Source: an uncultured bacterium (GTDB lineage: Bacteria > Joyebacterota > Joyebacteria > Joyebacterales > Joyebacteraceae). From it: 64,000 nucleotides of DNA. Shown here in pieces: positions 723 through 35,523 of the stretch. Numbering within the stretch: position 1 is the stretch's first letter; each line of letters begins with the position of its first letter. The notes beneath the pieces were generated by a model that was not told the DNA's origin, did no database searches, and worked only from the letters and a program-made list of their open reading frames with translations. The position numbers and the translations under genes were made by a program. Location of the stretch: the NCBI GenBank assembly GCA_964521425.1, contig CAZFRO010000005.1, positions 3,141-67,140 of the forward strand. Direction: 5' to 3'.

Positions 723-771
723 CAGTTGCCGAGCACACGCTCCGGAATCTCAGAGCCACTGAAGATCAAAC

Positions 772-797: not shown

Positions 798-836
798 GCT
801 CTTTCTCACAACTCTCAACATCGGTCGCGGCGCCAC

Positions 837-3800
837 CTATCTCAGCACGACCATCTTTCTCGCCTCACTGCCCTGTGGGGCAACCACCCTGACGAAATAG
901 ACACCGGCAGCAACTGTGCCACCACGGCTGTCCTTGCCATCCCAAGTCACTTCGTAAGTTCCTGGGGGAAGTTCCTCTGTGCCCAGATCTCTGACGACAC
1001 GCCCGGCGAGATTGTACACCTTGACACTGGTCAGTCCACCTGGGCTTGGAACGGTGAACTGAAGAGTCGAGTGAGAAGTGGTTGGATTCGGATACGCTTC
1101 GACACTTACGCTGGCTGGGTGGTGCGCTCCATCGCCAAGTGGCGACGCTTGGTCAACGTGCTCGTAGCGACCTGTACTCTCAAGAAGATAGTATCTCTCT
1201 GTGCGGGGTGCTTGGGCCGGTGGCAAGAAGGTCAAATCCATCCGCTCGCCAGAGGACAGACTCGTGTAGTCGCCATCTACAGAGCCAATGACAGTATTGA
1301 CTCGGCCGTTGATCGAGTGCTCGGCTGCGATGAGCACGCACTCCTCGAGATCCTCGGCGACCGGCACATGCGTCGAGAAGAAGAGCTGGTCAACATAGAA
1401 GTCCACCGGCGTCCAGAGCCGAACCACTATGGATCCATCCCCTTCTATCGCATCTTCTGGGACATCAAGGAACCGCGTGCACGCGTTCTCGCGATAGCAG
1501 AAGCGTGTCATATCAATCAGCCCCTGCTCCGCAGGTAAGTTGAAACCTCCGGCGGGTGGGTCAATCTTCTGCCCCGGGCCGCCGTCGGTACCTATCCCTC
1601 CCCCGGCACGCCCCGGCGCATCGAACTCGGCTACGATCCAACCACCTGCAGGAATCAGAACCGTCTTGCCATCGTCATGAAGGATCAGATCAAGGACATC
1701 TCGTCCATCTTCATCGGTGCAGGTTCCCGGAGAAACCCGTGAGCCATAAGTTACAGGAGAGCCGTCCACAGTCATTCCCAGCGAATAGCCAGACGGAACG
1801 TCTGTCGTGTAGAGGCGCAGTCCATCGAAGTACGAGACATCATTCCTATCCTCACTGATTCGGAGTCGGCATTCACCGTCCTCAATAGACGGAGGCGTGC
1901 TCAGCACACATAGGTCGGTCTTGTCCTCCCCGAGCGTTGCACCTGCAAGCACGTTGTTGTCGCTCACGTACTTGCCTCCGGATGCAACCGAGACGAATGG
2001 ACATCCGCCGCCGGACTCCTTCTGGAGAACGGCGAATGAGTAGCGGAACGAGAGATCCTGTCTGGCTCCTAGATCATGATCGTAGACAACTCGCGGCATG
2101 CAGTTGAAGAGAACGTTCTCGTTTCCTCCACAGACGACGCGGAATGTGTCGAATACTGTCGGAACCAAGGACAACACCATCGTCACGGACTCGTTTCCAC
2201 CCTCACAGAAGTCGAAGATGTTCGCGACGACGCTGTCCCCAGCTGCGAATTGCCCGGTGACCACGTGCGTAAGCGATTCACCTATCTCATAGACGTTCGT
2301 GTCCGCCTCGCTGTACTCCAGGAGACTGACCCAGAGCTCTGTGCTGTCGCTCATCGCCTGTTCGTCCCAGTTCACCTTCACCTGCAAGTAGCGATCACTC
2401 TTTGATGTATCATAGTACTCGGTGTCTGCGACGAAGCTGATGTAGTAGGATCCCCAGAGTCGGACCTTCACGGGGTCGCAGTACTCGTTGTCGCAGTAGG
2501 TCGTGTCCCTAGGGTCATTCCAGCCGTCTGTGCAACCGGCTGCCGGATCGCTGCCGCTTCCGGGTACGCTTACCCACGTGCTGTCATTGTCGCCGTCAGC
2601 GAGAAACATCGGGGGGATGGCGATCTCGTAGCAGTTGTGTGCCCCCTGCCCCGTGTCATTCTTCAAGAAGAGACCGAGCGATGCCGATGGAGAGATGCTG
2701 TCGCTAAACGCGTACGCAGCATCATGTGAATCATCTGCGACCCATTTTGCTATCGAGTAGTCATGGAAGATCTTCTGGAGGCGGTACCCTCCCGGATAGG
2801 CTTCGCCCACGCCCCCCAAGCCCGCATACGCTGTGCTGTCCAGCACCGAGGCAAGCCCACACATATCGCGCATGTACTTGCCGTCAGAGTCCCGTCGTGA
2901 CCGAAGCCACCTATACAGGAGGTCGTCTTCGTAGGATGCCTCGGCGAACCGCTCCACCAAATACGTCGACCACGCTGCCCAGTTCACGTATCCGGTCCGG
3001 CAGTCCTCTTCGTCGGTCCAGTTGTACGTAACACAGGGCTCAACCGAGAGCACGTTCGAGAGCAAGCCACAGCTCATCCACTCTGCCGACAGTATGCCCA
3101 CGAGGGATTGCGCGTAGGGCTTATCGTACGCGACAGCACCGCTGCCGCGCGGCTTGGCCATCATTGCTGCACCACTTGCGAAGAATTCATTGAAGTTGGC
3201 GTGCTCCTGCACGATGCCGTGCTCGCTCGCGTCAGAGTTCCAGAATGCGTGCTGTGTCTCATGTGCGGCACCGACGGCTGCGTCGACTGGCCAGTCCAGA
3301 GTGTCACCACTCGCATTCAGTGCCCCTACAAGGACATGGAACGAGTTCTGATGATACTCACCGTACCCGGGCAGCGGCGGTTCGTCCTCGCTGATGCTCG
3401 TGAAGTCAGACACACACGATCCGTACGTCGCATCGACTCCACTAAGCGCCAGGTAGAAGTCGACATGGTCCCTCTCACCGCCGCCTACTCCCGAGTCGGC
3501 ACACGACGGAAAGAGAGCGAAGTTGTGCACTGCAGCGGAATCATAGGAAGTAGTAGCGCAGAAGTAGTTGACCAGAAGCTGAAGATCCGTCTCCTGAACA
3601 TCGCGGAGGTTGTCCTTGGCGATGTCAAATGTCCCAACAATGCGCCGTATCTCCCCGAGGTCGACGGCATTGATCCCGGTCAGCGAAGAACTCACGAGAA
3701 GGTCAATGTCATCATCTGGGCGCTCCGAACCGAAGTCCAACACCGCAGGGGCGAACGTCGGCGAAACCGTGTGCGTCGAATCCCAGAGACACCAGCGAGT

Positions 3801-3965
3801 GGAGCCACGGTCAATACCGGGATTCGGGTCAGTCGTGTCGGGTTGCCCGCCAACGCCAACCATGACGATTCCCTGGATGGCTGCGGACGATTCCTCACAA
3901 GCAGTGAAAACGACCATGCCGAAAACCAGCACGGTCGCAAGCACAACAAGGCCTCTGACCAGCAT
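837..3965 (-). CDS. Secreted T9SS cargo protein, 1042 aa; putative zinc metallopeptidase
   Basis: N-terminal signal peptide (MLVRGLVVLATVLVFGMVVFTAC). HETQH (HExxH) motif at about aa 245-249. C-terminal type-A T9SS sorting domain (AYPNPTTSHSTLQFTVP...VKVYNLAGRVVRDL...GVYFVRV...RKMVVLR). Confidence 0.6.
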   Translation of the reverse strand: MLVRGLVVLATVLVFGMVVFTACEESSAAIQGIVMVGVGGQPDTTDPNPGIDRGSTRWCLWDSTHTVSPTFAPAVLDFGSERPDDDIDLLVSSSLTGINAVDLGEIRRIVGTFDIAKDNLRDVQETDLQLLVNYFCATTSYDSAAVHNFALFPSCADSGVGGGERDHVDFYLALSGVDATYGSCVSDFTSISEDEPPLPGYGEYHQNSFHVLVGALNASGDTLDWPVDAAVGAAHETQHAFWNSDASEHGIVQEHANFNEFFASGAAMMAKPRGSGAVAYDKPYAQSLVGILSAEWMSCGLLSNVLSVEPCVTYNWTDEEDCRTGYVNWAAWSTYLVERFAEASYEDDLLYRWLRSRRDSDGKYMRDMCGLASVLDSTAYAGLGGVGEAYPGGYRLQKIFHDYSIAKWVADDSHDAAYAFSDSISPSASLGLFLKNDTGQGAHNCYEIAIPPMFLADGDNDSTWVSVPGSGSDPAAGCTDGWNDPRDTTYCDNEYCDPVKVRLWGSYYISFVADTEYYDTSKSDRYLQVKVNWDEQAMSDSTELWVSLLEYSEADTNVYEIGESLTHVVTGQFAAGDSVVANIFDFCEGGNESVTMVLSLVPTVFDTFRVVCGGNENVLFNCMPRVVYDHDLGARQDLSFRYSFAVLQKESGGGCPFVSVASGGKYVSDNNVLAGATLGEDKTDLCVLSTPPSIEDGECRLRISEDRNDVSYFDGLRLYTTDVPSGYSLGMTVDGSPVTYGSRVSPGTCTDEDGRDVLDLILHDDGKTVLIPAGGWIVAEFDAPGRAGGGIGTDGGPGQKIDPPAGGFNLPAEQGLIDMTRFCYRENACTRFLDVPEDAIEGDGSIVVRLWTPVDFYVDQLFFSTHVPVAEDLEECVLIAAEHSINGRVNTVIGSVDGDYTSLSSGERMDLTFLPPAQAPRTERYYLLESTGRYEHVDQASPLGDGAHHPASVSVEAYPNPTTSHSTLQFTVPSPGGLTSVKVYNLAGRVVRDLGTEELPPGTYEVTWDGKDSRGGTVAAGVYFVRVVAPQGSEARKMVVLR

Positions 3966-4024: not shown

Positions 4025-5872
4025 CTATCTGAGAATCGTAATCTCTCTCCGTTGCTCTCTTACAGGTGCGTTATTCAGCCTCAACTCCACCAGGTAGACC
4101 CCACTGGCCACTTGTGCACCGGATGAGTTGGTTCCGTCCCAGCACAGCATCGAGCCAGGCGCAGCGTAGATGCCGGGTGTCCTGTGTGGTGCAACGAGTG
4201 CGCTGACTCTGCGACCGGCGATGTTGTAGATCGCGATTGACACCACGCCGTCAACGGACTGCTCATACCCGATGCAGGCGCCGCTGCTCGACGGATTGGG
4301 AGAGGCGAAGAGAAGCCGCGCGGGTGCGGATACATGCGGAGCCAGCGTCGCCACGGGAACGGGTCCGGCGTAGGTTGAGAAGCCCTGATGCGTCCACTCA
4401 ACCCAGTAGAGAAGCTCGGAAGCCCCCGGCGCCGTTGCATCCTCCCATTCGTAGGGAGGAGACGTTACGGAGAGTTCATTCAGGCGTGTCGCCGAGGCGG
4501 GTGGCTCGCCGGGCATCACATCCAGCCCGTCGCCCAGTGCTCGCCACACATTGAATGGACCAAACGCGGCCTCCCCAGCGGCGTACCAAGAGACACGGAC
4601 GGTGTTTCCTTCCGTCGCGGCCTCGAGCAGACCGAAGTCAACGGGTGTTGTTAGCAGTGAACAGCTTGTGCCACGGATGTCATCGTCCCAGGGAGGCTCA
4701 ATGACCTCGAAGCATACCCAAGCGGACCAGATCCTGCTGTCAGGACCGATAGCCACCGTAGGGTACTTGCCCGTCTTATTCCATACGTCATCACTGATGA
4801 TCTGCTCAGGGGTCCAGCCCTCCCCGGTCCATTGCGACGTCAGGACCGCGGCGCCCATGGGATCCAACATGTCGCCCCCGTACCAAGCGGCAACTACCTC
4901 ACCGCCCGGTCCGACAACGCACTCTGCGATGTAGTCGTAGTCGTACGTGGATGAATCCGGCAGATTGACCAGCTGAGAGGGTGTCCACTCCCCATCTTCC
5001 AACCGGCTGTATTCGACCTCAACCGTGGCGGCCATATTCCCTGTCCAGAGCACCATCGGGACGTCGCCGTCGAATACGATCTCTGCCCCTCCACTGTTGT
5101 TCAGATCGCCATTCACAGTATCGGGCAAAGCCCACGCAGTGCCTGTCTGGCGGGTATACATGATGGGCAAGTGATAGCTAGCCTCAGGCGACGCACCCCA
5201 GACAACCCAAGGGTCTCCATCCGGATCCACGGCGATGTCGGCGTGGGCGCAGCTGTGACCCTCCATCCCGAACCGCAACGACTCAACCCACTCGGCCCCA
5301 TCCCAGTGGTAGATCAGGATGGCGCGGCCGTCGTACTCATCAACGAACGCGTCAGTGGCGACCCATACGTCATCCGAGTTCACCGCGTAGATATCGTAGT
5401 CATCGTAGCGGCCGGCGTTCGTGCGGAGGATCTCAGGTGTTGCCCAGCGGCTACCTTCCCAATGGGAGAACCAGAGTCTCGAACCGTTCTCCTGAGCGCG
5501 GTACCACACAACCCAAGGAACACCGTCCGACCCAATGGAGATCTCGGGATACCTGTCTGCGCTCGAGTTATGCCCATGGAGAGTGTCGGGATCTGTCCAC
5601 CCCGAGCCATCATTGGTGCTGTACAGGATCTCCTCATCACCAACGACCGGGTCGTACCCTGTCCAGACGATCCACACCGTTCCCGAAGGATCGACATCGA
5701 TCGCCGGTCCCTTGTCGTCGTACTCATCGTCTCCGCCGATGAACAACTCGGGGCCGCAATCCAAGCCATGCACTGGAGACGCGAGAGCCAGAAGCAGAAG
5801 CAGGACCACAGCCAGCGCGACTAGGCAGGCCCAGCGGGTGAAAACGGTACAATGTCGGATTGGGTAGCTCAT
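4025..5872 (-). CDS. Secreted BNR/Asp-box repeat (beta-propeller, sialidase-like fold) protein with T9SS C-terminal domain
   Basis: Signal peptide. Repeated Asp-box-like motifs (STNDGSGWT, SHWEGSRWAT, HWDGAEWVE, TRQTGTAWAL, RLEDGEWTP, QWTGEGWTP) and repeated ...PWVVW... blade-like segments. C-terminal sorting domain (SPNPSS...VSIAIYNIAGRRV...GVYLVEL...ITILR). Confidence 0.6.
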   Translation of the reverse strand: MSYPIRHCTVFTRWACLVALAVVLLLLLALASPVHGLDCGPELFIGGDDEYDDKGPAIDVDPSGTVWIVWTGYDPVVGDEEILYSTNDGSGWTDPDTLHGHNSSADRYPEISIGSDGVPWVVWYRAQENGSRLWFSHWEGSRWATPEILRTNAGRYDDYDIYAVNSDDVWVATDAFVDEYDGRAILIYHWDGAEWVESLRFGMEGHSCAHADIAVDPDGDPWVVWGASPEASYHLPIMYTRQTGTAWALPDTVNGDLNNSGGAEIVFDGDVPMVLWTGNMAATVEVEYSRLEDGEWTPSQLVNLPDSSTYDYDYIAECVVGPGGEVVAAWYGGDMLDPMGAAVLTSQWTGEGWTPEQIISDDVWNKTGKYPTVAIGPDSRIWSAWVCFEVIEPPWDDDIRGTSCSLLTTPVDFGLLEAATEGNTVRVSWYAAGEAAFGPFNVWRALGDGLDVMPGEPPASATRLNELSVTSPPYEWEDATAPGASELLYWVEWTHQGFSTYAGPVPVATLAPHVSAPARLLFASPNPSSSGACIGYEQSVDGVVSIAIYNIAGRRVSALVAPHRTPGIYAAPGSMLCWDGTNSSGAQVASGVYLVELRLNNAPVREQRREITILR

Positions 5873-6080
5873 CGCGTGCGCTCCTGCTCCTCGCAGTGGT
5901 CTCGCACCAACGGATGGTGAGGATCCGAGGCCTCTACGTAACCACCTACATCAAGTATAGCACGCTGTCAACAACAAAGCTAGGTGCATATCGATGCATC
6001 GCCTCCTCAAAAAGGGCCACGCACAGGCCTCGATCGCGGGCCTCGGTCCAGTCTGCCTCGAAGACGTTCTCATCTCCCTG

Positions 6081-6150
6081 ACAAAAGGGCACCCGCGCCA
6101 AAGGCGCGGGTGCCCAAAGACACAATCGGCTTGACACCGACCGTTCCATA
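6081..6150 (-). repeat. Conserved 3' element, copy 1: box TGATATGGAACGGTCGGTG, then hairpin GGGCACCCGCGCC/GGCGCGGGTGCCC, then U-tract
   Basis: On the gene-sense strand it is nearly identical to copies at 17051-17123 and 35216-35295. Hairpin stem at 6087-6115 with a 3-nt loop, followed by TTTTGT. Confidence 0.6.
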
Positions 6151-8343
6151 TCACTTGAGAAGCAGCATCTTCTTGCTCGACTCGATGTCCTCGGCGTTCA
6201 TGCGGTAGAAGTAGACACCTGTGGCCATCTGCTTGCCGTCAGTGTCCTTACCGTCCCACACGACGCTCTGCTCACCCTCAGGCTCGAGTCCATCCACGAG
6301 AGTCGTTACGAGCCGTCCCGCGACGTCGTAGATCTCGATCGTCACGTGACCGCCGCCCGCAGGAACCTCGTAGTGGATCGTGGTCTTCGGGTTGAACGGG
6401 TTTGGAACGTTCTGGCGAAGATCGTAGCTCGTCGGGATCTCATCCGGCACACCGGTGCCGTAATCCATCTTGAGAGCGAACGCCAGATCGATCGAGTGAC
6501 CTGCCAGGGCGTGGTTCGGAGGATAGATGAGCTCCTGCCACGGACCCGGGTACGGCTCCATGCCCCAGCCCCAGACCGCGTCGTCGTTCCAGTTGTCGAG
6601 TGTCGTCTTCCAACCGAAGAGGGCATCCACATCCATGGGCTGTGCCTGGACGTCGAGCCAGTAGATGATGTTGGAATCCGGCATGCCGACCTGATGGAAC
6701 GCCTCTTCACGAGGAACAACGAACGAATAGAGCCAGCAGATCGTGTCAGCCGGGAACCAGTACTCCTCAGGCGGGTTCATCCAGCCTTCCAGTATCTGGT
6801 CCTGCCAGATGCTGGCCGTGAACTCGCCAGGAATGAAGTCGCGTACCCACAGGACCTCACCAGGCATGCTGTAGCCGCCCACGGGGGCCGGGATGTCCTC
6901 GTGGATGCTGAGCGTGAACTTCACGCCGTAGGGATCTTCGCCGAACGGGATGTAGTCGTCGAGCCACGAGCCCCACACGTCGATATTCGTGAGTCGCCCC
7001 GGCTCCGTGCAGAGGAAGTCGTCGGCGAGAATATAGGGCTCGGTGCAGTTGATGTCGATTCCGGTCTCCCCGAGATCCGGCGTCTGGATCCACTTCCAGT
7101 CGTCAGGAGCTTCAAGGCTGACCTCGTAGTCCTCGACCTCACCGTCCACTGCCATACCTCCGTACGACAGCCCACCGGAGGAGCTCAGACGGAATCTGGC
7201 GAATGTCGTAGCTGCGGTGGCGCCCACGGGAACGTTGAAGTTCAACGTCGGGGCGGTGCCTGCAGCCACCCACACCGATGTGAGAATCTGGTCACCGAGC
7301 TCAGCCCAGCCTCCGTCACTGTTGAAGTCGACCCAGGCGTCGATGAACCCACCCATCCCCGACGACATCATGTCGATCTTCACGCCGGCGGTATTGCCAG
7401 GGATCATCGCGCCCACGAAAGTAACGCCATCCTCATCGGCCGTTCCGGCGATATCGTCGCCGGTAGCATTGAAGTTTGGCTGGCCGTTGAGTTCAGAGTC
7501 TATGAGCATACCCATCTGGAAACCTGGAACGATCGGATGGGCTGGTCCACCGCTCGCGGCGAAGGTTGGGTACGTCGGATCCGGAGCGTCACCACAGTCG
7601 AGCAGCGGCGGCTCCGCTTCACCGGCAATCACGAAAGCGAGATCGATCGACTCAGGGTACCACGGATGCCCTTCGGGGTAGCGAAGCTCCCACCAGTCCG
7701 TGATGTTGGGTTCCTCTCCCTGACCCCATACAGCATCGTCATTCCAGTGGTCGACAGATGTCTTCCAGCCGAAGTAGGCATCGATATCATCGGGCCTTGC
7801 CTGTACGTCGAGCCAGTAGACGATCGGGTTCGCGGCTGAGCCCTGCTGGACGAAAGCCAGGTCCCCGATGATCGTGAAGTTGTACTGCCAGCAGACCGTG
7901 TCGCCGAGTGGAACATACATGTCGGGTGGGTTCAGCCAACCCTCCTGAAGACCCTCTTCCCAGATCCGCGGCTGAAACTCGCCCGGATTGAAGTCCATCA
8001 TCCAAAGAAGCTCGCCCGGCATGCTGTAGCCGGTCGGGCTCTCATCGGCCGGGATGTCCGCGTGGATGCTCAGCGTGAAGCTGACGGCCGTCGGATCGCC
8101 GTACGGGAGGTAGTCCTGGTACCACGAGCCCCATACGTGGATGCCTTCTATGGGACCAGTCTCCGTGCAGAGGAAATCGTCGGCCAGAACGAATGGAAAC
8201 GTCGCATTGACGTCCATTCCGGTCGGCTGCAGATCCGGGAGCTGGAGCCACTTGTATGGATCGCCATCGTCCCAGTCCGCGCTCGCAAGTACTGAGAGCG
8301 CAAGAACAAGAACGGCGGCGAACACAAACGTTCTCCTTGCCAT
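6151..8343 (-). CDS. Secreted T9SS cargo protein with two tandem ~210-aa repeats flanking a GEVED-like domain
   Basis: Signal peptide (MARRTFVFAAVLVLALSVLASA). Repeat 1 is aa 23-235 and repeat 2 is aa 414-622 (DWDDGDPYKWLQLPDL...IDLAFVIAG versus DDWKWIQTPDL...IDLAFALK), with clear residue-level conservation. The middle region ends in ...GGMAVDGEVEDYEV (GEVED motif). C-terminal sorting domain (VPNPFNPKTTIHYEV...IEIYDVAGRLV...GVYFYRM...KKMLLLK). Confidence 0.6.
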   Translation of the reverse strand: MARRTFVFAAVLVLALSVLASADWDDGDPYKWLQLPDLQPTGMDVNATFPFVLADDFLCTETGPIEGIHVWGSWYQDYLPYGDPTAVSFTLSIHADIPADESPTGYSMPGELLWMMDFNPGEFQPRIWEEGLQEGWLNPPDMYVPLGDTVCWQYNFTIIGDLAFVQQGSAANPIVYWLDVQARPDDIDAYFGWKTSVDHWNDDAVWGQGEEPNITDWWELRYPEGHPWYPESIDLAFVIAGEAEPPLLDCGDAPDPTYPTFAASGGPAHPIVPGFQMGMLIDSELNGQPNFNATGDDIAGTADEDGVTFVGAMIPGNTAGVKIDMMSSGMGGFIDAWVDFNSDGGWAELGDQILTSVWVAAGTAPTLNFNVPVGATAATTFARFRLSSSGGLSYGGMAVDGEVEDYEVSLEAPDDWKWIQTPDLGETGIDINCTEPYILADDFLCTEPGRLTNIDVWGSWLDDYIPFGEDPYGVKFTLSIHEDIPAPVGGYSMPGEVLWVRDFIPGEFTASIWQDQILEGWMNPPEEYWFPADTICWLYSFVVPREEAFHQVGMPDSNIIYWLDVQAQPMDVDALFGWKTTLDNWNDDAVWGWGMEPYPGPWQELIYPPNHALAGHSIDLAFALKMDYGTGVPDEIPTSYDLRQNVPNPFNPKTTIHYEVPAGGGHVTIEIYDVAGRLVTTLVDGLEPEGEQSVVWDGKDTDGKQMATGVYFYRMNAEDIESSKKMLLLK

Positions 8344-8642: not shown

Positions 8643-9314
8643 ATGAGAAGAGTCGTGGCATTTGTTCTGATAGGCGCCCTCGCAGCCGGACTCCTGGGCT
8701 GCGCGGCGATGAGCAGAAGTGATATGGGTCTCCTGATCGGCGCGGGGACCGGTGCCCTTGTCGGCGGAGCGATAGGTGACGCATCCGGCAACACGGCCAT
8801 CGGCGCCATCCTGGGCGCGGCCGTCGGCGGAGCAGCAGGTGCTGCCATCGGGAACTACATGGACGACCAGGCCGCCGAGATCGAGGCGGACATTGAGGGA
8901 GCTACCGTCGAGCGGATCGGCGAGGGAATCAAGATCACGTTTGACTCAGGGCTTCTGTTCGACGTCGACAAGTTCGACCTGAGACCTGCGTCACAGGAGA
9001 ACGTGACCGAACTCGCCAGAATCCTGAACAAGTATGAGGACACCGACATCCTGGTCGAGGGACACACCGACTCGGACGGCTCGGACGAGTACAACATGAC
9101 GCTCTCGGAGCGGAGGGCGCGCTCGGTCTCCGTCTCCCTGGTCGAGAACGGAGTGAACGCGGCTCGCACGACGGCGGCATGGTACGGTGAGGGTCAGCCG
9201 GTGGATACGAACGACACTGCTGAAGGCAAGCAGGCCAATCGTCGGGTCGAGGTTGCGATCATGGCGAACGATGATCTGAAGGCGGCCGCCGAGCGAGGAG
9301 CGCTGGGCAGCTAG
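8643..9314 (+). CDS. OmpA-family lipoprotein with N-terminal glycine-zipper segment
   Basis: Lipoprotein signal (MRRVVAFVLIGALAAGLLGC). Glycine-zipper region (GAGTGALVGGAIGD...GAILGAAVGGAAGAAIGNYMDD). OmpA C-terminal domain (FDVDKFDLRP...ILVEGHTDSDGSDEYNMTLSERRARSV...ANRRVEVAI). The start is moved from the ORF-track 8598 to the ATG that has an SD. Confidence 0.8.
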   Translation: MRRVVAFVLIGALAAGLLGCAAMSRSDMGLLIGAGTGALVGGAIGDASGNTAIGAILGAAVGGAAGAAIGNYMDDQAAEIEADIEGATVERIGEGIKITFDSGLLFDVDKFDLRPASQENVTELARILNKYEDTDILVEGHTDSDGSDEYNMTLSERRARSVSVSLVENGVNAARTTAAWYGEGQPVDTNDTAEGKQANRRVEVAIMANDDLKAAAERGALGS

Positions 9315-9395: not shown

Positions 9396-11693
9396 CTATC
9401 TGCTGAGCAGGAGCATCTTCTTCGTCTCGCTTACGGCAGCGGCCTCAAGACGATAGAAGTAGACGCCGGCCGCGAGTTCGGCGCCCGAAGGACCGCATCC
9501 GTCCCACGTGGCCACGTTCAACCCTGCGACGCACGCATCGTCCAGTATCGTACGGACCTTCCGGCCACTGACATTGAAGATGTCAATGCGCGCGTGGCCC
9601 TCCTCAGGCATAGAGAATGTAATCGTGCTCGAGACCCTGAACGGATTCGGGTAGTTCTGGTTGAGTGCGAACACGTATGTCGTGTCACCCGAGGACGTGC
9701 CCTCTCCCACCGTCACGCTCTCAATGTGCGGAGTGCAGTTGAATTCCGTCAGAGTCAGCGTTACGACACCGCTGTCGGGCAGACTCCCGACGATCTCTAT
9801 CACTGCCTCTCCGAATGCATCGGCGATCGCGCATCCCAGAAAAGACCCACTGTCACTCAGAGCCGCCCTGACTGAGGGCTCCGTGAACACGGTGAAGGAG
9901 GTCGACCCCTCTTCGATGTGCCCATCGTGGCTCGCCGCCAGTGCCGTGGGAGTGTTGCTTCGAACCGTAAGCGCCGGATCGCCGAAGATGTGCCAGTGGT
10001 TGAACTCGTCCGCGCCGTCGTGCCCGTACTCGTCCATCATCTTGCTCGAGCCGTTGAAGCAGAGCCCCCCGAGAGTCTGCATCTCTTCAGATACGAGCAG
10101 GTGCGCTATCTCGAGCTGTGCGCTGATCGGCGGCACCCAGCTCATGCTGATCGTTGATGCGTAGACCCCGACCCCACCGGTAGGTTCGTCCCCGTTCGTC
10201 GCCCGTTGCCAGACCTCAGCGAAACAGGTCTTGTCCGTGTACTGACCGGTCACGCAGGCCGTGCTTATGACCCACGGCAGCATGTTGTCATTCACGAGCC
10301 CGTTGACATCACCATTGATGTAGGTCCCAGTGCTCCACCCCATCGTGTTGCCGTGGCCTAAGTAGTTGACGAGACTCCTCCCCTCGTTCAGCGCGGCGCT
10401 GATCTCAGCAGAGGTCACTCCGGGATCGTAGAACTGATCGACATAGGTGTAGGTGTATCCGAGAAGCGTCTCGCGGATGGCCTCGATGAACTCGTAGTCT
10501 GGTGATCCACTGCCGCCATCCTGATCCGAGGCGATCCCTGTTGCCTTGTGATACCAGTCGGCGCCCGGCTCGGGATCGCGCTCATACTCTATCGTCCTCT
10601 CCACCTGTGTCGCGACCTGATCGAGCGTCTCTGCGGAGAAGCGACCGACGAAGATCTCCGGGTAGTTGTCGCTTCCAGCCAGAAGGGAATACACCGGGTC
10701 GGCTGACTGGGTTCCATCAACGGGATACGGCATCTGCTCATCGTCGCCGACGAGAAGCACGTACGCGATGCCGTCGGTGTCGTAGGCGTTCTGGATGTAG
10801 CTCTTGATGTCGTCGGCCGTTGAGCCGACCGTCGAGAGGCCCACGAGCGTCGTCGGCACGCCGATCTGGTTCCGCCAATCGGCCAGTGGGCGCGTGGTCT
10901 CGATGAAGGCATCGTTCGCGATGATCAGCATCGGCCCGCTCTCGGCCAGCGGCGTGTACCTGCCGGCAATCGAGCGGTAGTTCAGATAGCGGCTCCCATA
11001 GAGCCGTTCGAACTCCGCCACGCGTGCGCCGGGACGCTTCTTCAGAACATTCACACTACCCGTACCCTCGACAGATACCTCAACCGTGATCGAGGTGTAG
11101 ACTCGGAGGGTGTGCGTCCGGGCGTTGTACTGGAACGGGTTCAGCTCAAGGACGACGCCGCGCGTGTCCCGCATGATGAACGGATCACCAAGTCCGGCGA
11201 TCTCCGCAGGAAACCACGCATCCTGCTCGTAGACGGTCCCGAACGTGTACGGGACCGAGTCCGGATCGACGTTCCTCTTGATCGCTCCTTTGGAGGGAAC
11301 GACATCTATGCGGTCGAAGTCGCGGAAGGTGGCATCGATGACCCGGATGCCCATCTGCGCGTCGTCGGGAATGACGATCGACTGTCTCACGATCGGGAGT
11401 TCCGGAAGTCCCTGCTCGAGCAGTCGGGCGGCGCCGTTCAAGGCCACCGAGAAGAGAAGCCTCCCGTCGATGTCGACAGGCTCAGTCGTGAAGCTCCCGA
11501 CATCGAGTCGCAGGGTTGTGCTCTCGAGGTTCGATGCGAGAAGCGTGAGTTCGGTGGGCGCGGCGCCTGGGGCAAGCTCGATACGCTCGGCAGCCGTGCT
11601 CGTGGCTGCGAGGGTGACGGGTATGAGCAGGATGGCAATGAGTGGTCTCAAAGATTCCTCCTTGCGGCCATTATAGCACGAAGCCGGTGTCAT
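9396..11693 (-). CDS. Gingipain-like cysteine peptidase (family C25) with T9SS C-terminal domain
   Basis: Signal peptide after an internal start (MTPASCYNGRKEESLRPLIAILLIPVTLAA...). Catalytic-region motifs GHGNTMGW and STACVTGQY resemble the C25 His/Cys dyad. C-terminal sorting domain (NQNYPNPFRVSSTITFSM...IDIFNVSGRKV...GVYFYRL...KKMLLLSR). The start is trimmed so it does not overlap the upstream gene. Confidence 0.55.
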   Translation of the reverse strand: MTPASCYNGRKEESLRPLIAILLIPVTLAATSTAAERIELAPGAAPTELTLLASNLESTTLRLDVGSFTTEPVDIDGRLLFSVALNGAARLLEQGLPELPIVRQSIVIPDDAQMGIRVIDATFRDFDRIDVVPSKGAIKRNVDPDSVPYTFGTVYEQDAWFPAEIAGLGDPFIMRDTRGVVLELNPFQYNARTHTLRVYTSITVEVSVEGTGSVNVLKKRPGARVAEFERLYGSRYLNYRSIAGRYTPLAESGPMLIIANDAFIETTRPLADWRNQIGVPTTLVGLSTVGSTADDIKSYIQNAYDTDGIAYVLLVGDDEQMPYPVDGTQSADPVYSLLAGSDNYPEIFVGRFSAETLDQVATQVERTIEYERDPEPGADWYHKATGIASDQDGGSGSPDYEFIEAIRETLLGYTYTYVDQFYDPGVTSAEISAALNEGRSLVNYLGHGNTMGWSTGTYINGDVNGLVNDNMLPWVISTACVTGQYTDKTCFAEVWQRATNGDEPTGGVGVYASTISMSWVPPISAQLEIAHLLVSEEMQTLGGLCFNGSSKMMDEYGHDGADEFNHWHIFGDPALTVRSNTPTALAASHDGHIEEGSTSFTVFTEPSVRAALSDSGSFLGCAIADAFGEAVIEIVGSLPDSGVVTLTLTEFNCTPHIESVTVGEGTSSGDTTYVFALNQNYPNPFRVSSTITFSMPEEGHARIDIFNVSGRKVRTILDDACVAGLNVATWDGCGPSGAELAAGVYFYRLEAAAVSETKKMLLLSR

Positions 11694-16950: not shown

Positions 16951-17050
16951 AGTTCGGCAGTTGAACTCACCCGTCTCGGGGTCGAGCCGAACATCCCCGC
17001 TTTGAGGAGTGCCTGAACATACGCGCTTGGTAGGAGATGTCCTCCTCTCC

Positions 17051-17123
17051 ACGACAGAAAGGCACCCGCGCCAACGGCGCGGGTGCCCAAACACAGAACC
17101 AGCTCGACACCGACCGTTCCATA
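17051..17123 (-). repeat. Conserved 3' element, copy 2 (box plus terminator hairpin 17061-17087)
   Basis: On the gene-sense strand it reads TGATATGGAACGGTCGGTGTCGAGC...TTTGGGCACCCGCGCCGTTGGCGCGGGTGCCTTTCTGT, about 90% identical to copy 1. Confidence 0.6.
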
Positions 17124-19369
17124 TCACTTGACCAGCACCATCTTCCTCATGTCGCTGAAGCCCGGTGTATCTATGCGATAGAAGTAGACTCCCGAGGGAA
17201 CTTGCTGGCCCTGCTCGTTCGTACCATCCCAAGTGGCCTGGTGTTCGCCCCCTGGCCTGTTGTCATTGATGAGCGTCTTGACCTGTCTGCCCGCCAGATC
17301 AAAGACCACAATCGAAACATGCGCGCCTCCGATCGGCACCTCGTATGAGATGTGCGTGACCGGATTGAAGGGATTGGGTGTGTTTGGCGAAGCTGAGAAT
17401 CGGTCGGTGGCCAGGTCGCTCCAATCGCCTGACCCCAGTTTGGCGAGGAGTTCTGGCGGGATAGGCAGAGTCCGCGAGCTTCCGCACTCGTGGCCGAAGT
17501 GAGTGGAGAGGGTCACGAAATCAATGGGATCGACGACTCCATCGCAGTTGAAATCCGCGACCCAGCTTCCCGGCGCACTGCTGCCAAACCAAGGTGCGAA
17601 ATGCCCGAAATCGAGGGGATCGACAATGCAGTCAGCATTCATGTCGGGCGAGCGGACCTGTGTCTGCAGTACGTCCGGCAGCATCCTCGGACCGTCCGTG
17701 TACGCGGCAATTGTCAAGAGAGTATCGCTACCGCCTCCCCACCAAACGTCCACCCAAGCTCGTCCCCCGGCATCCGTCGCCGCTCCGGGCAGCATCACTT
17801 GCGGTGATTGGACTGTCTCCTCGGTGTCCTCGCAGCACAGCCTAGATGTTCCATCTACACTCGGAATCAACCACACGAACAGATCATCATTCTCTTCCAC
17901 GGGGAAACCACAGCTGTCTCTGAGAGTGATCTCGAGCTTTATGGGGGGCCGCCCCCCTACCGGCGCCTCCAGATCTCCGGCTGGACAGAGCTGGGGGCAG
18001 TCTGGCTGGTTCGGTGCAAAGGCGAATTCACATTGCGGTAGATAGGGACGCCAGCAGGCATTGCACGCGGGTCCCGCACGTCTTTGGCTACTACCTGCTC
18101 GCCCCATGACCAGGTATGAGTACTTGCGGCCGTGCGGGGCCGTCATATCGATGTACTCGTACTCGCCGGGTCCTGATGCCGGCAGCAGATCGGGGCTGAT
18201 CTGCGCATAGGCCTCAATGTACCGTGTCCCGTCATCCAGCCACTCCCAGTCGGGTGCCCGGTAGACGTCGAAGCCATCCAGTGCTCCGCCCTCGTAGGTC
18301 GTCGTCCACTCCACTCGAACCCCCTCAACGACCTCTTCGCAGGAAACCGTCGAGTACTCCGCCAACTGTATTCCCGTGGCAACCGCTGGACCACAGGTTC
18401 GTGCGAAGCCATTGTCGCACCAGATGACATAGCTATACGAGAGACCCCGGACGACCTCGTTATCAGCATACGTGAAATGCTCTTCGTACGGTGATCCGCT
18501 GCCCTCGTATACGAGGACATATGGCTGGCCCTCCTCCTTCCCATACACGCGGAAGCTGTGAGAATAGGGCCCGGGGTTCACCCACCAATCCAGTTGGATC
18601 TGACCGGCGCCAGGGGTAGCAGTGAACATGTAGAGATCGTCCACTGAGGTCCACAGGTATATTGTATTGGCTCCGTTCTCTTCATCGGAACACGGTGATC
18701 GCCTTACGAAGTTGCTGTACCAAGGATTCGACATCACACAAATCGGATCACAGACAATCGGATCTGTGTGCCTGAGCGACAGCCAATGGCCAAACTCGTG
18801 CAACGCCTTTGATTCTATGTCCATGGGCCAGTTCACAGGGGGGGGGCCGGTAGGTAGTCCCAGTCGAACATCGGCTGGTTGAAGAACGTATCGCACTCCA
18901 GAATAACGTAGCCTTCCTTGCTTATGCAGGCCACTGCGCAATCGTCTATTTGGCTGCTAGGCCAAATCATGGAGAAGCCGACGCTGTTCGTGTCATCGAA
19001 CACATGCGAGAGCCCGTAGTAGTCGGTCTCACGATATGGCGCGATGTACTCGATTGGCGCGAAGATCGTCGAGTCTATGGTCTCGTCCCAGGTCGACATG
19101 GCACTCTGTATGCCCGACAGACCGCCATCCTCCACATTTGGTCCGGCAACCAGATCGAGCAGATTGGGAGTGACGTGGTAGTCGAAGCTGTCGAACCAGC
19201 GGAGATAGTTGTTCCCACTTGTGCTGCAGTTCGGATTGAAGCAGTCGAACGGATCGTCATCACACGATGATTGTCCAATGCAGACTCCAGGCATGCTGGC
19301 GATTCCCAGAAGAGCCGTCATGAGGAATAGCGCCCCAGCTGCCCACCGACTACTACGGGCCCGCTCCAT
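17124..19369 (-). pseudogene. Metzincin-like Zn-metallopeptidase T9SS cargo gene, split into two overlapping ORFs by a frameshift in a 9-G homopolymer
   Basis: Upstream ORF 18833-19369 carries the signal peptide (MERARSSRWAAGALFLMTALLGIASMPGVC). Downstream ORF 17124-18941 carries HEFGHWLSLRH (HExxHxxSxxH), two dockerin-like Ca-binding repeats and a T9SS sorting domain (TPNPFNPVTHISYEV...VVFDLAGRQV...GVYFYRI...KMVLVK). The two overlap at the G9 tract 18838-18846. A 10th G would join them in frame (...DYLPAPPPVNWPMDIESKALHEFGH...). Confidence 0.55.
18838..18846. repeat. Poly-G (9 nt) homopolymer inside the metzincin-like cargo gene
   Basis: gttcacaGGGGGGGGGccgg. This is the site of the frame change between ORF 18833-19369 and ORF 17124-18941. 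Confidence 0.9.
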
Positions 19370-30986: not shown

Positions 30987-31871
30987 TTGAATTTGAAGCC
31001 AATCTCCAGCTGCGCGGCCACTCTTATTGCTGGTGCACTGATGCTCTCGGTGATGCCAGGCTGTGGCAATGCCGAGAGCGGAAATGCACCGTACGACATC
31101 GACACTCTCCAGCCTGGAGAGCGAGCACTGGTTACGCTCCCTCTCGAGTTCGATATCGTGTCGTCGAACAGGCTGTACGTTGATGGCGTGCTAGTCAAAC
31201 ACGCTCTTCTCACGACGGAGGACGGTGGCTCGCTCTTCCTCAACGGAACACCGATTCTCCCTCACAGGCCGTGCCCAGAGGGACCGCCGTTGCCCGAGGA
31301 GACATACGAGCGGGTCTACGGGGCCGTTCCATATGTTCAGGAACTCGTGGAATCAGGTGCCTCGGCGAGAGAGGCCGGGCAGGCGTATCTGGCTGCAAAG
31401 AGGAGAGTAGTTGGCAGACTGCATGAGCTGTACCTTGCTGCTCGCGAGTCTGGAAAGGACCGAGACGCTGCGGGGACCGTGGCTTTCGATGCTCTTAGGG
31501 ACCTAGACGAGGCGAGTCTGATTGACTGGGACGGCGAGGTCACGCAGAGCTACAACATGTTTATCGTCACCTGGAGAGGAATGAGAGGAGAGGAAGAGAT
31601 CCTGTTCGTGGACTCCGGGCCGGAGAGGCTCCAGGCACCGAGCGAGGAGGCGAAGCAGCGTCTCGCCACGCGGCTCTACGAACTGCTCGGCCGGGGTGGC
31701 GCACCGTGCTGGTACGTCATCACGTGCAGCAGCACGTCTATCGACATAGGGACGGAAGCCGTCGCCAAGACGCAAGCTCATCTCGATGAGGCAAGGCAGA
31801 CCGGGGTGATCGAGGGCGGTGCTCTGTCGAAGCTCGCAGTCGAGCAGATACTTGCCAATGAGGGGAGGTGA
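30987..31871 (+). CDS. Hypothetical lipoprotein
   Basis: Lipoprotein signal MNLKPISSCAATLIAGALMLSVMPGC. The stop overlaps the start of the downstream giant cargo gene. Confidence 0.5.
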   Translation: MNLKPISSCAATLIAGALMLSVMPGCGNAESGNAPYDIDTLQPGERALVTLPLEFDIVSSNRLYVDGVLVKHALLTTEDGGSLFLNGTPILPHRPCPEGPPLPEETYERVYGAVPYVQELVESGASAREAGQAYLAAKRRVVGRLHELYLAARESGKDRDAAGTVAFDALRDLDEASLIDWDGEVTQSYNMFIVTWRGMRGEEEILFVDSGPERLQAPSEEAKQRLATRLYELLGRGGAPCWYVITCSSTSIDIGTEAVAKTQAHLDEARQTGVIEGGALSKLAVEQILANEGR

Positions 31872-34800
31872 GCGAGATGCCGAGTAGATTGACATGCTTA
31901 GCGATGTGCTTGGGCCTGCTCATCGCGTCCAGCTCACCCGCGCTTGCCGAATCCGCCGGGATCTTCGACATGTGCGACTGGGAAAACGACCATCTGAACT
32001 ACGATGACGCGGTGCTTGAGCGGTGCATTGCGGCGAAGGACACGTGGGATATCCTCGCTGGGATGGTCAGGGTGCGTCAGGAGAGCAGTCTTGACAACGA
32101 CCCGGCGGCCAGCTTGCTGACGTGGCAAGACCTTGTCGCCGGCAGCACCGCCGTGGACATCACTTCACACGGGGGCAGTGGCGGCTCCCTGGCGGCGGAG
32201 TTCTATGCAGACGAGACCGTCAGAGACGCCGTCTTCGATCAGTACACGCACGAGGAGACCGGTGGGTATGGGGTGTCCCAGATCAGGGTTGGGACCGTCG
32301 TCAGTCCTCCCGACACAGCCTACACTATCACATGGAAGGCTCAGGGCATTTCTGACTTCCTCTCCTCCGCCGCCCTCGGCATCTCATCGCGGGCGATCCT
32401 CTTCGGGGACTACTGCGCCAGCTGCACGAGCGCATACCAGTGGGGATTGGATTTTAGTGGGTCATGGTGGCCCATCGGTGGTGCGATGTTCTGCTACACG
32501 GAGTCTCAGCCCTCCGATCCGCTGACAGACTATCGCGAGAACCTCTACGGTGCGATGAGCTCTCTGGGCTGCTATGTCCTCGGGCGGGATTCGAGTGTGG
32601 GCGACGCAGAGGATGAGATCACCGAAGAAGGTTCAGACGTAGATATCACGGTTCTGGGTGACCGTGAGAGCAGCTACCACTTGGATGAGGACTGCCACAA
32701 CCCCGCCGCCGCCTTCGACGGTGCCTTTGCGTTCGATGGGAAGATCGTGTTCCGAACTGCCTACGAGGCGGGGTCGATCTGTCACTTCGTGATGGGAGTG
32801 GACTCGTGGCGAGACGTGAACGTGAAGGACTGGACTTCATGGGATGTGCTCGCACGTGTAAGACCGGAGGGAGGGCGAGGAGTCGCCCAGCTCTACGAGG
32901 TTGACGACGTGCCTGACAAGGCCGCCTACCGGATCGTGGAGGTGGACCGCTACGGTCGTCCAACGTTCTCACCGGTCTTCGTACATGGCGCGAAACCGGC
33001 GGCGTACGACGAGTGGCTGGCGCATCCGGCTGTCGTGGCTGTGGTAGACAACAAGCATGGGATGTCGTCGGGGCTCTACCACTGGGTATCGGGTCGGAGG
33101 GTGCGCTATGGCCACGAGTTCACCTCGCCTGGAGAGGATGGGCACACGGGGAGTTCGGATGGAGGTCCGAGCTTCGCAAGCCGAGCCGACTCGAGCGGGT
33201 GCGCGGACATCATCGTGTACACGAATGCAGACTACGATAGCTTGCTCTTGCCCGTGGAGGATCACCTCTCCCACTACTCAGGCAAGAAGGTCCTTTACTT
33301 CCTAGGAAGCTCCAGCTTGGCCGACGCACAAACGTGCTACGGCGACGTTCACTCAAGCAACGTGGCGTACAATCAGGCAACAGGTACCGATAGGTTCCCA
33401 ACGGATGCCCCAGGGCCACTTCTGCTGCTCGTGGGCGACTCCTATCCGAGTATCATAGTATCGCACGACAGCTTCCCTGACGAGCATGACAGGTGCCAGT
33501 ATCCGTGCTTCTCGGATCGCGACGCCACGGATGTTCTGGGATCCGGCCCGATTGGACTTGTGCATCGCATCCCTGCTGATACCGTGGCTGAGGTAGAACG
33601 AGCATGTGCTGGGGCCTACGACTGGAACCGTGGGGATCATGTAGATCCAAACTGGAGCACCATCGAGGTTGTCGGGAACCGATTGGGCGACTCAATCACT
33701 GAGTGGCCGATTGAGATGGCCGACGATGCCGCATCGAAATTCATGGGAATGGGTTGTCTGGCGAAGCCGCCTCTCGTGGAGGGAGACTACCCCTATTCGC
33801 AACAGGGCACATTGGACAAGTGGGCAGACTTCGATGCTCAACTTGACGACGGTGCCGCGATGCTATGGGGCTTCGGCCGCGTCACGGACGCGCTCTATGA
33901 CGCAAGCTACGGTGGATGGGCTGGTCACTTCGTGCACAAGCCGGACACAACTGCGAACCGGACCCAACAACGCATCGTGGCGATGATGCCAGGTTGCACG
34001 ACAGTCGGAGTCTGGAAGGACAACACCTATGTGACTTCGCTTGTCGAGCGGTGGATGTACTTCGATCCGCGGTTCACTCAGATCGTTGGCACGGTCGGGC
34101 ATCTCACTGGCGGGTGGGAGCACCAGCACCGGAAGGCCGAGGAACTGTACATGGACGCGTGGCGCGAGGCCCCCAAGGATGCACCTCTTGATTGGGTAGT
34201 CTGGCGGGCGACGCAGATGGCGGAGGAGCAGGGCCTCTACTGGATGGAGGACTACTTCAGATCGGCCGCCACAATCGGTGGCTACGTTCTGGCTCGACCA
34301 GGAGGGGGCTGGAGTACGTCGGCCATTGTGACGGAGGCCGACTCTCTTGTGTTCTGCCCTTCGGGATGCGGCCAGTCACATGCTGACTCCATTACTATCA
34401 TCGTGACAGTGAAGGACAAGACGACCGGGATCCCTGTGGTTGGAAAACCTCCGGAGGACATCCGCGTAAGTGCGTGGTCGGAGGAAGGCTTCTCGTTGGT
34501 CTGTGAGGATACATGCTACATTCTGCCCTGCCTGCATCCGCCATCCCCCACGGATGAGAATGGGCAGGCGTTCATCCCCCTGAACCGAGCCGGTGGTCAC
34601 GGTCCCGGCGCATTCTTGAGTGTCAACGTCAACTTCCCGGCCAGTGGGTATTCGATCGGTAGGACCATCGATCTGGAGGCCAAGTCGCCCGACATCAACG
34701 GCGACGGCTCTGTCGACCCGATTGATTTCGGCCGCTTCGGCACCGACTTCAGCGAAGGGGTGGGGTGGCGTTCGGATTTCGACTACGACGGAGATGTCGA

Positions 34801-35215
34801 CCCGATCGACTTCGCGAGGTTCTCCGCGCACTTCGGCCACAGCTGCGGGAGCAGACAAACGTCACAGATTCCTCCAGAGCTGCTGGCGCAGCTCGGCCTG
34901 GCGCCGCCCGGCGTGGAGGGCGATCAGCTTCCTGCGGTCTACGATCTCGATCAGAACACGCCGAACCCATTCAACCCTGTTACGTCCGTCAGGTACGCGG
35001 TTCCTCGTCCGGGTGGACGCGTGAAGATCGAGGTCTTCGATGTCGCGGGCAGGCATGTCACGACGCTAGTCGACGCCGAGAAGGAGCCTGGGTGGTACGT
35101 TGCCGCGTGGGATGGAACCGACGATGAGGGACATCGCGTGTCATCGAGCGTGTACTTCTGCAGGATGGAGGCGGCGGGGTTCTCCGAGAGCCGCAAGCTC
35201 GCGCTCGTCAAGTGA
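31868..35215 (+). CDS. Giant (1115 aa) secreted T9SS cargo protein with dockerin-like repeat pair; function unknown
   Basis: Signal peptide (MPSRLTCLAMCLGLLIASSSPALA). Dockerin-type Ca-binding repeats (DINGDGSVDPIDFGRF, DFDYDGDVDPIDFARF). C-terminal ~150 aa (dockerin + IPPELLAQLG linker + sorting domain TPNPFNPVTSVRYAV...IEVFDVAGRHV...VYFCRM...KLALVK) is shared with the 17124 cargo. Confidence 0.6.
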   Translation: MSEMPSRLTCLAMCLGLLIASSSPALAESAGIFDMCDWENDHLNYDDAVLERCIAAKDTWDILAGMVRVRQESSLDNDPAASLLTWQDLVAGSTAVDITSHGGSGGSLAAEFYADETVRDAVFDQYTHEETGGYGVSQIRVGTVVSPPDTAYTITWKAQGISDFLSSAALGISSRAILFGDYCASCTSAYQWGLDFSGSWWPIGGAMFCYTESQPSDPLTDYRENLYGAMSSLGCYVLGRDSSVGDAEDEITEEGSDVDITVLGDRESSYHLDEDCHNPAAAFDGAFAFDGKIVFRTAYEAGSICHFVMGVDSWRDVNVKDWTSWDVLARVRPEGGRGVAQLYEVDDVPDKAAYRIVEVDRYGRPTFSPVFVHGAKPAAYDEWLAHPAVVAVVDNKHGMSSGLYHWVSGRRVRYGHEFTSPGEDGHTGSSDGGPSFASRADSSGCADIIVYTNADYDSLLLPVEDHLSHYSGKKVLYFLGSSSLADAQTCYGDVHSSNVAYNQATGTDRFPTDAPGPLLLLVGDSYPSIIVSHDSFPDEHDRCQYPCFSDRDATDVLGSGPIGLVHRIPADTVAEVERACAGAYDWNRGDHVDPNWSTIEVVGNRLGDSITEWPIEMADDAASKFMGMGCLAKPPLVEGDYPYSQQGTLDKWADFDAQLDDGAAMLWGFGRVTDALYDASYGGWAGHFVHKPDTTANRTQQRIVAMMPGCTTVGVWKDNTYVTSLVERWMYFDPRFTQIVGTVGHLTGGWEHQHRKAEELYMDAWREAPKDAPLDWVVWRATQMAEEQGLYWMEDYFRSAATIGGYVLARPGGGWSTSAIVTEADSLVFCPSGCGQSHADSITIIVTVKDKTTGIPVVGKPPEDIRVSAWSEEGFSLVCEDTCYILPCLHPPSPTDENGQAFIPLNRAGGHGPGAFLSVNVNFPASGYSIGRTIDLEAKSPDINGDGSVDPIDFGRFGTDFSEGVGWRSDFDYDGDVDPIDFARFSAHFGHSCGSRQTSQIPPELLAQLGLAPPGVEGDQLPAVYDLDQNTPNPFNPVTSVRYAVPRPGGRVKIEVFDVAGRHVTTLVDAEKEPGWYVAAWDGTDDEGHRVSSSVYFCRMEAAGFSESRKLALVK

Positions 35216-35295
35216 TGTGGAGCGGTCGGTGGTAGGTCGACTGCATGTTTGGGCACCCGCGCCGTTGGCGCGGGTGCTCTTCTGTTAGAGAGACA
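35216..35295 (+). repeat. Conserved 3' element, copy 3 (box TGATGTGGAGCGGTCGGTG plus terminator hairpin 35253-35277)
   Basis: Reads TCAAGTGATGTGGAGCGGTCGGTGG...TTTGGGCACCCGCGCCGTTGGCGCGGGTGCTCTTCTGTT. The ~35-nt hairpin block is identical to copy 2. Confidence 0.6.
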
Positions 35296-35523
35296 AGAGC
35301 ATCCTCAGCGGCACATCGAAGTGAAACCGGCTGGTCAGCTACCACGCGTTGGGTGGCCCCTCAGAATCGCCATCTCGCGCACCCCATATCAACTTCCTCA
35401 ATTCCACTATCTGTGATATCATCATATTGGTTCGATCTCTTGAGGTGGCGGCAATTGCTCCGCCACTCGTGTCGGTAGACACTGGCTTGTGTGATGTCGT
35501 GCACAAGGGAGAGGAGCGGGTCA

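Follow-up and report, generated by a model that had tools for sequence, protein, structure and literature searches.

The window analysed here, a stretch of 64,000 nucleotides (64 kb) from a 140-kb metagenome contig, contains three copies of a short repeat, each lying directly at the 3′ end of a T9SS cargo gene. Gene A (6154..8343, minus strand) encodes a protein with the Pfam domains DUF7901, GEVED, FlgD_ig and Por_Secre_tail, which has a T9SS sorting domain and ends in ..KKMLLLK. An internal direct duplication in this gene (6554-7031 vs 7709-8189, ~1155-nt spacing, 70-88% identity) corresponds to its two DUF7901 domains. Genes B (17127..18941, minus) and C (31868..35212, plus) encode CTD-type cargo ending in ..RKMVLVK and ..RKLALVK, the former matching FlgD_ig (7e-9) and CHU_C (4e-5) and the latter FlgD_ig (1.3e-6). 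With FlgD_ig, Por_Secre_tail or CHU_C domains at the end of the upstream genes, the link to T9SS cargo that was made in a preliminary description of this locus is genuine. Its three copies were likewise found where it had placed them, by reading the sites, by counting box and hairpin matches and with a covariance model.

On the gene strand, the three copies share one layout: the last codons ..(C/G)TC AAG are followed by TGA, the box TATGGAACGGTCGG (which reads TGTGGAGCGGTCGG in copy C, with two substitutions), ~20 less-conserved nt, the hairpin TTTGGGCACCCGCGCC-NTT-GGCGCGGGTGC, and a T-rich tail. Copy A (6049..6153, minus) begins with the TGA of gene A (6151..6153) and continues with the box (6137..6150), a fold-predicted hairpin 1 (6122..6144), and hairpin 2 with its tail (6080..6115), comprising a 13-bp stem at 6087-6115 and T-rich sequence at 6080-6086. 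Copy B (17041..17126, minus), which follows gene B, is composed of a TGA at 17124-17126, the box at 17110-17123, hairpin 1 at 17095-17117, hairpin 2 at 17060-17088, and the tail at 17053-17059. In copy C (35213..35299, plus), after gene C, the same parts lie at 35213-35215, 35216-35229, 35222-35244, 35251-35279, and 35280-35286, respectively. A length of ~80 nt and a start after the stop codon had been proposed for the repeat. The repeat is real, but it runs for ~105, 86, and 87 nt in copies A, B, and C, as measured by alignment to the IS right ends described below (a local alignment with the relatives L172 and L207 for copy A), and the TGA is part of the unit, forming its start.

The box AAGTGATRTGGARCGGTCGGTG has three exact matches in the 64-kb window, all in sense orientation, where shuffled sequences lead one to expect none, and the hairpin GGGCACCCGCGCC-NTT-GGCGCGGGTGC occurs in three places against an expectation of 0. 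A covariance model made from six copies, the three window copies included, scores these at 104.6 bits (A, 6076-6153), 90.5 bits (B, 17049-17126), and 91.9 bits (C, 35213-35290), and a search of the 64 kb at E<=10 returned no further full match with a meaningful score. Pairwise identity among the three copies is 79-87% over a gap-free 78-nt element, as opposed to 63-66% over the upstream 240 nt of CTD coding DNA, with a sharp step at the stop codon. This agrees with the earlier view that the three loci are not whole-gene duplicates. Spread together with a C-terminal cassette, which had been offered as an explanation, is not supported, since the CTD DNA of these genes is no more similar than that of other paralogues. 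The element is present on 3 of the 7 CTD-type genes of the window. No Rfam family matches in the window at gathering threshold, the best sub-threshold hit scoring 21 bits against thresholds of 50-80.

Folding revealed two successive hairpins. The 5′ arm of hairpin 1 lies within the box and its 3′ arm is formed by the ~20 nt previously described as variable, which are indeed less conserved but are a paired part of the structure; the 13-bp GC hairpin (hairpin 2) and the U-tail come next. Across 12 copies, 94% of hairpin-1 cells are paired and most changes are of the wobble type; in copy C the box has an A-to-G change to which a U-to-C change in the 3′ arm corresponds, and GTCAAG is retained even in the diverged relatives L211 and L212. 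For hairpin 2, pairing reaches 98.7% over 12 copies in an alignment that was fitted to the model (slid controls pair only ~40%), with changes on both sides in 8 of its 13 pairs, and L211 and L212 have a hairpin of unrelated sequence at this position. In copy A, the 13-bp stem is followed by CUUUUGU, while the tails are weaker in B (CUUUCUGU) and C (CUCUUCUGU). A GC-rich stem-loop followed by a U-run, as expected of an intrinsic (Rho-independent) terminator, is thus present, a terminator scan also matches it, and the T-run is found on the host-gene strand only. In agreement with its first description as terminator-like, hairpin 2 is best read as a predicted intrinsic terminator facing the host gene, its structure being conserved with compensatory changes.

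The nature of the box is apparent from copies outside the window. A metagenome scan with an 18-nt box, a pattern that is short for such a collection, yielded only two genuine copies, L172 and L151; ~118 of the 120 matches were chance or coding, e.g., Rho's DMERSV. L172 is a 1.67-kb contig in which the full element follows ..RKMLLLK-TGA and a perfect inverted 14-nt box lies ~1.44 kb away. The ORF between these boxes matches Pfam DEDD_Tnp_IS110 (PF01548) and Transposase_20 (PF02371), with E values of 9e-19 and 2.7e-20. Homologues of this transposase number ~8,000, and proteins P0121-P0240 were assigned to DEDD_Tnp_IS110/Transposase_20 by precomputed Pfam. They are mostly encoded on contigs of 1.3-2.5 kb, as expected of a multicopy repeat. 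Nine full-length relatives from metagenomes and MAGs, L172 and L205-L212 (the latter eight at 85-69% identity), were compared. The right tip is on the contig in six of these (L172, L206, L207, L210, L211, and L212), and L209 ends inside hairpin 2.

The full element measures ~1.46 kb. In transposase orientation, it consists on the left of TAGACCA (7 bp) next to a variable flank, the left inverted repeat (IRL) TATGGAACGGTCGG and the DEDD transposase gene, and on the right has a non-coding region (NCR), a third small hairpin, an A-run, hairpin 2, hairpin 1, the right inverted repeat (IRR) CCGACCGTTCCATA, and TCA. In all six elements with a right tip, the sequence from the third small hairpin rightward is the reverse complement of the window element. 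The non-coding sequence is 230-261 nt long downstream of the transposase gene (the NCR, conserved among the copies) and 85-99 nt upstream (left tip to start codon), and, like the window, it has no match in Rfam. A perfect IRL copy of the box lies 7 bp inside the left tip in L172, L205, L206, L208, L209, and L210; the inverted repeats agree at 14 of 14 positions in L172, L206, and L210, and over 11-13 bp in L211 and L212. The two ends moreover co-vary between lineages, reading GGAACGGTCGG at both ends in the L172 type and GGAACGGCT at both ends in L211 and L212, and therefore the box is IS-encoded. The tip variants track transposase relatedness. Left flanks of eight copies diverge exactly 7 bp outside the IRL, and on the right the 3 bp TCA abut the last sense codon. 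From this comparison of ends, the box is the putative right subterminal inverted repeat, i.e., a recombination end of the IS. This would account for the part of the repeat that termination could not explain, as had been pointed out. Among the options offered earlier, a recombination target comes closest, although the box would be the recombination end of the IS rather than its target. The TA of the left tip could be part of the IS (under the 7-bp rule) or of the natural stop codon, which leaves the exact crossover ambiguous.

On the IS strand, the loop region of hairpin 1 contains TTGACA, pointing outward 17 nt from the right tip and kept in all full copies, which we infer to be a candidate −35 of a circle-junction promoter. 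This motif is degenerate in window copies B (TCGACA) and C. In L172, a tRNA-Met gene with a textbook TTGACA-17-TATAAG promoter (1530-1643) adjoins the left end of the IS, which indicates that sigma-70-type promoters are used in this lineage.

IS1111-type elements have subterminal inverted repeats of 11-13 bp with extensions of 7 (or 6) bp on the left and 3 bp on the right, a long NCR downstream of the transposase gene, and one target that is used in one orientation without duplication; they produce a 70-100-nt RNA with short overlapping matches to both target strands, top-strand complement first (PMC11187229). The element shares with this group (ISEc11, ISKpn4, ISPst6, ISPa11, IS4321/IS5075) a DEDD transposase composed of PF01548 and PF02371, subterminal repeats, a long downstream NCR, a single orientation at a specific target without duplication, and, as candidate guides, short NCR segments that match the target (PMC11187229). 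It fits only when the box is taken as the IRR: the left extension, placed independently through the divergence of the flanks, measures 7 bp, and the right extension is the 3 bp up to the last sense codon. By four structural criteria (transposase, inverted repeats, NCR, and target), the element is thus classified as IS1111-type from its sequence, and its extensions and candidate guide are consistent with this. It differs in having an inverted repeat of 14-15 bp rather than 11-13 bp, a tip that brings a replacement stop codon and an outward terminator, and as a target the Leu-Lys + stop 3′ end of T9SS CTD paralogues, the known targets of the group being REP, attC, and transposon inverted repeats. 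IS621 and ISCro4 (PDB 8wt6 and 9t56) belong to the same superfamily, their C-terminal domain aligning at E ~1e-8 to 1e-9 over the ~100 residues to which the similarity is confined, and they share RNA-guided target choice, which we propose here by analogy. Unlike our element, they are members of the IS110 group: they lack subterminal inverted repeats and carry their guide RNA upstream of the transposase gene.

Unlike the complete members of the group, the window holds truncated right ends only. Neither a transposase (tblastn) nor an NCR core was detected in the window, the 230 nt downstream of each solo copy contain nothing resembling an IRL (p>0.39), and no significant IS homology extends beyond the 86-105 nt of the copies. 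Since transposase, NCR core, and left end are all missing, the window copies are solo right-end remnants. Copy A matches the IS 30 nt further in than hairpin 2. We consider it likely that each of the three copies represents the last 85-105 bp at the right end of an IS1111-type (IS110-family) element, read on the host-gene strand. Neither the relatives nor the 64 kb yielded a full-length IS whose hairpin 2 has the window sequence GGGCACCCGCGCC, so the derivation of the window copies rests on homology to related lineages.

The flanks of the complete elements reveal where they insert. In all six visible right flanks, TCA lies directly against the last sense codon, with the transposase gene antisense to the flanking gene, and the flank reads ..(C/T)T(G/C)AAG or ATGAAG, a Leu/Met-Lys gene end, with no direct repeat. 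By precomputed Pfam, the flanking gene has FlgD_ig in L207, L211, and (faintly) L212. Stop codons differ between the two kinds of CTD genes: TGA in 7 of the 7 that bear the element, as against TGA in 4, TAG in 15, and TAA in 2 of the 21 that are free of it (Fisher p=2.8e-4). On the other side of the IS, the far flank after the TA of the left tip starts with G or A in eight of eight cases, giving TAG or TAA, and in five of the eight a natural-looking terminator hairpin follows 20-85 nt further on. Because of the extension rule, the stop-codon usage, and these far-flank TAG/TAA codons, the TGA appears to be the 3-bp extension of the IS and the displaced TAG or TAA the original stop codon of the gene. 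The association of the element with cargo genes is attributed to a predicted target choice by the IS, not to regulation of cargo. Element-free stop codons lie at 837-839, 4025-4027, 9396-9398, and 37351-37353 in the window and at loci L201-L204 and L032; the excess of TAG among such genes is unusual for a GC-rich genome, and TAG is the stop codon with which the guide-like 8-mer of the IS (..AAGTA) would pair.

This 8-mer, CTGAAGTA and its variants (CUGAAGUA, CUCAAGUA, and UUGAAGUA), is found in every copy within CTCG-N-(C/T)T(G/C/A)AAGTA-TG, ~50 nt past the transposase stop codon. Its hexamer agrees with the flank at 6 of 6 positions in L172 and L207 (CTGAAG) and in L206 (CTCAAG), where the candidate guide has changed together with the flank, and at 5/5, 5/6, and 4/6 positions in L210, L212, and L211, respectively. 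The TA that follows matches the first two bases of TAG/TAA. A second NCR segment, ..C-TAGAC.., resembles the left junction and is a weak match as a bottom-strand guide. The order of the two candidate guides, top-strand complement first, is that of IS1111 elements (PMC11187229).

By analogy with seekRNA and bridge RNA, an NCR RNA containing CUGAAGUA (or CUCAAGUA or UUGAAGUA) would pair with the end of the gene and two bases of its stop codon (TAG/TAA). The predicted target sequence is CTGAAGTAGC, and insertion would occur between the last codon and the natural stop from a circle whose predicted junction is ..CCGTTCCATATCA|(TA)GACCATATGGAACGG... The protein would remain unchanged, the TCA of the IS providing a new TGA, while the natural stop codon (TA + G/A) and terminator would be displaced to the far side of the IS. 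The tip hairpin and T-run would then stop transcription of the cargo gene and keep antisense read-through out of the IS. The solo copies would be most simply accounted for if the interior of the IS had been deleted and the right end kept. Most likely, we infer, the right end survives since it has become the gene's sole source of a stop codon and terminator.

Loci elsewhere bear on the history of the element. When species-representative genomes were scanned for the hairpin core, 76 loci were obtained, 72 of which are in unrelated taxa, showing that the stem alone is a generic GC palindrome. The other four come from two Candidatus Eisenbacteria MAGs and have the element directly after a ..LLK stop. 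In one of these, L062, the 78-nt element shares 93.6% identity with copy A, the gene ends being unrelated (61.6% identity). L032 and L039 appear to be orthologues in which the element has been retained, with hairpin 2 differing by compensatory changes. In L060 (2693-2779, minus), a CTD gene ends in TAG and is followed by a hairpin 2 and tail close to the window copies (52 bits), with the box and the 5′ arm of hairpin 1 replaced by unrelated sequence. Homologues of gene A are labelled Candidatus Eisenbacteria or Krumholzibacteriota by their sources. All four gene A orthologue loci, including the syntenic L201 (79% amino-acid identity), are without the element, their genes ending in TAG followed by an unrelated spacer and another terminator hairpin, so the element was not inherited with gene A. 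Both these orthologues and the 93.6% identical copy on non-orthologous genes of another species go against host selection for a small RNA or 3′UTR site, which had been suggested at first. Likeness among the copies probably reflects a common IS origin rather than such selection. Counting against our reading, one copy, L151 (3161-3236, minus), follows an FG-GAP repeat gene ending ..SWGVIKAMYR-TGA and lacking a recognisable CTD. L151 is either an off-target insertion or a gene truncated by insertion.

The solo right ends might be more than debris. There is some small chance that they are retained, recombination-competent modules on which a transposase acts in trans, the cargo 3′ ends then serving as programmable landing pads or exchange points. 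If that were true, the IS lineage would provide a naturally occurring RNA-guided recombinase whose target is a conserved protein-coding motif.

A different possibility is that the repeat belongs to the host, as a REP-like 3′UTR repeat of cargo genes just 3′ of whose hairpin 2 an IS110-family element inserts, much as ISPa11, ISPpu9, and IS621 use REP sequences. The family is known to target REP, attC, and other hairpin-bearing repeats (PMC11187229, PMC12288879), and our sample contains as many solo as full copies. A further argument comes from L209 and L210, which have an identical transposase and are identical over ~1.3 kb, including ~190 nt of the NCR, and then show ~8 differences in the last ~50 nt around hairpin 2, among them a compensatory G-C to A-U change. 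Divergence starting near hairpin 2 would look like a boundary between IS and host target, which fits a host repeat better and counts against our reading of an IS end; L209 and L210 nonetheless retain common derived features within the diverged ~50 nt. It seems that evolution or exchange may be more rapid at the right tip than elsewhere in the IS. A targeted host repeat is nevertheless improbable on several grounds. It would deprive the IS of its IRR, yet a perfect 14-bp mate of the IRL sits exactly 3 bp from the gene; the IRL and the box co-vary between IS lineages; and copy A has 30 nt that would be internal to the IS. A host 3′UTR with such a repeat would contain two stop codons and two terminators, given the TAG/TAA in the far flanks and the terminator-like hairpin in five of eight. 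Finally, the guide-like 8-mer matches the gene end and not the hairpin-2 tail, and orthologues lack the element.

Equally doubtful is the idea that the solo copies are self-contained right-end modules that are mobilised in trans or maintained by selection, like ssr9 or as a domesticated stop-terminator/recombination pad. There is a precedent in ISPpu9, for which minicircles of the downstream module alone and solo copies are known (PMC12288879); in our sample, the outer tip is intact in all solo copies, lengths cluster around 70-105 nt, and the orthologous-looking L032 and L039 have both kept the element, with compensatory hairpin-2 changes. The inner ends, however, vary in position, a search for a second end or IRL-like sequence was negative, the solo copies have no NCR core that would encode the guide RNA, and the IRR and the outward TTGACA are decaying in copies B and C. 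Like our element, ISPpu9/ssr9 of Pseudomonas putida KT2440 is an IS110-family case in which the downstream module is also found solo elsewhere in the genome (PMC12288879). Unlike our copies, which are the outer 70-105 nt with variable inner ends, ssr9 consists of complete modules forming their own minicircles (PMC12288879).

Still less probable is a cis-regulatory 3′UTR RNA, or a 3′UTR-derived sRNA, that co-regulates T9SS cargo genes. An element that is more conserved than the coding sequence, folds into two covarying hairpins with a U-tail, and is associated with cargo genes would be expected of such an RNA, but it matches no Rfam family, is missing from 4 of the 7 CTD genes of the window and from the orthologous loci of four related genomes, and its sequence forms, in six independent contigs, one end of an IS with a transposase gene. 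The small ORF that begins one nt past the TGA is not conserved either: this reading frame (MERSV...) is closed by a stop after five codons in L039, and six translations, aligned and used as query against the protein collection, gave no match. SECIS, readthrough, or a frame-0 extension was rejected in view of the absence of third-position substitution bias and of indels that break the frame in L151 and L172. An ECF-type or sigma-70 promoter at GGAAC was rejected, as a −10 is not conserved and the gene that copy B faces is convergent. A MITE with both IS ends would have left an IRL remnant, of which there is none, and the box is present in the window only in sense orientation, three times. To our knowledge, the anatomy of integron attC sites, of the DGR IMH, and of DNA uptake sequences does not suit the element.

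Taken as an IS end, the repeat is largely explained by a known kind of mobile element. It resembles Rho-independent terminators and REP/BIME repeats in being a GC hairpin with a T-run that follows a stop codon and recurs in the genome, and differs from these in that its box, stop codon, and first hairpin are an IS end, that it is tied to one gene family through insertion specificity, and that no RAYT-type system is involved. What appears to be new is the target, namely the conserved end of the coding sequence of T9SS cargo genes from Eisenbacteria-like bacteria, together with a "silent" insertion that brings its own stop codon and terminator and the abundance of solo right ends. We found no paper that links IS110 or IS1111 elements with T9SS genes. 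For annotation, this means that a "conserved 3′UTR motif" of Eisenbacteria-like cargo genes is to be read as IS ends and not as regulatory RNA. This would be a natural IS110/IS1111 lineage with a guide aimed at the Leu-Lys-stop end of a large paralogue family, an abundant and harmless "safe harbour" where the element would mend its own damage through its stop codon and terminator. Natural re-programming of the candidate guide (CTGAAG, CTCAAG, TTGAAG) might provide comparative material for recombinase engineering.

Two further observations concern the neighbourhood of these genes. A terminator hairpin, CGAGCCCCCGTCC-GAGG-ACGGGGGCTCG, follows the gene at 837-3965 (minus) in the window (771-798) and is nearly unchanged after the gene A orthologue in L201 (~8860-8890); relative to L201, two additional genes (4025-5872 and 837-3965) and the element separate gene A from this hairpin/EF-G in the window. 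In L203 (4320-4345; ~4375 in its orthologue L204), a gene with Endonuclease_1 and CTD domains ends in TGA, followed by CCC and GGAACGGTCGGGCCCGG. This sequence matches the inverted repeat of the IS and the left end of L172 over 11-16 nt, with no IS nearby, and may be an old remnant or a chance match; both orthologues end in TGA.
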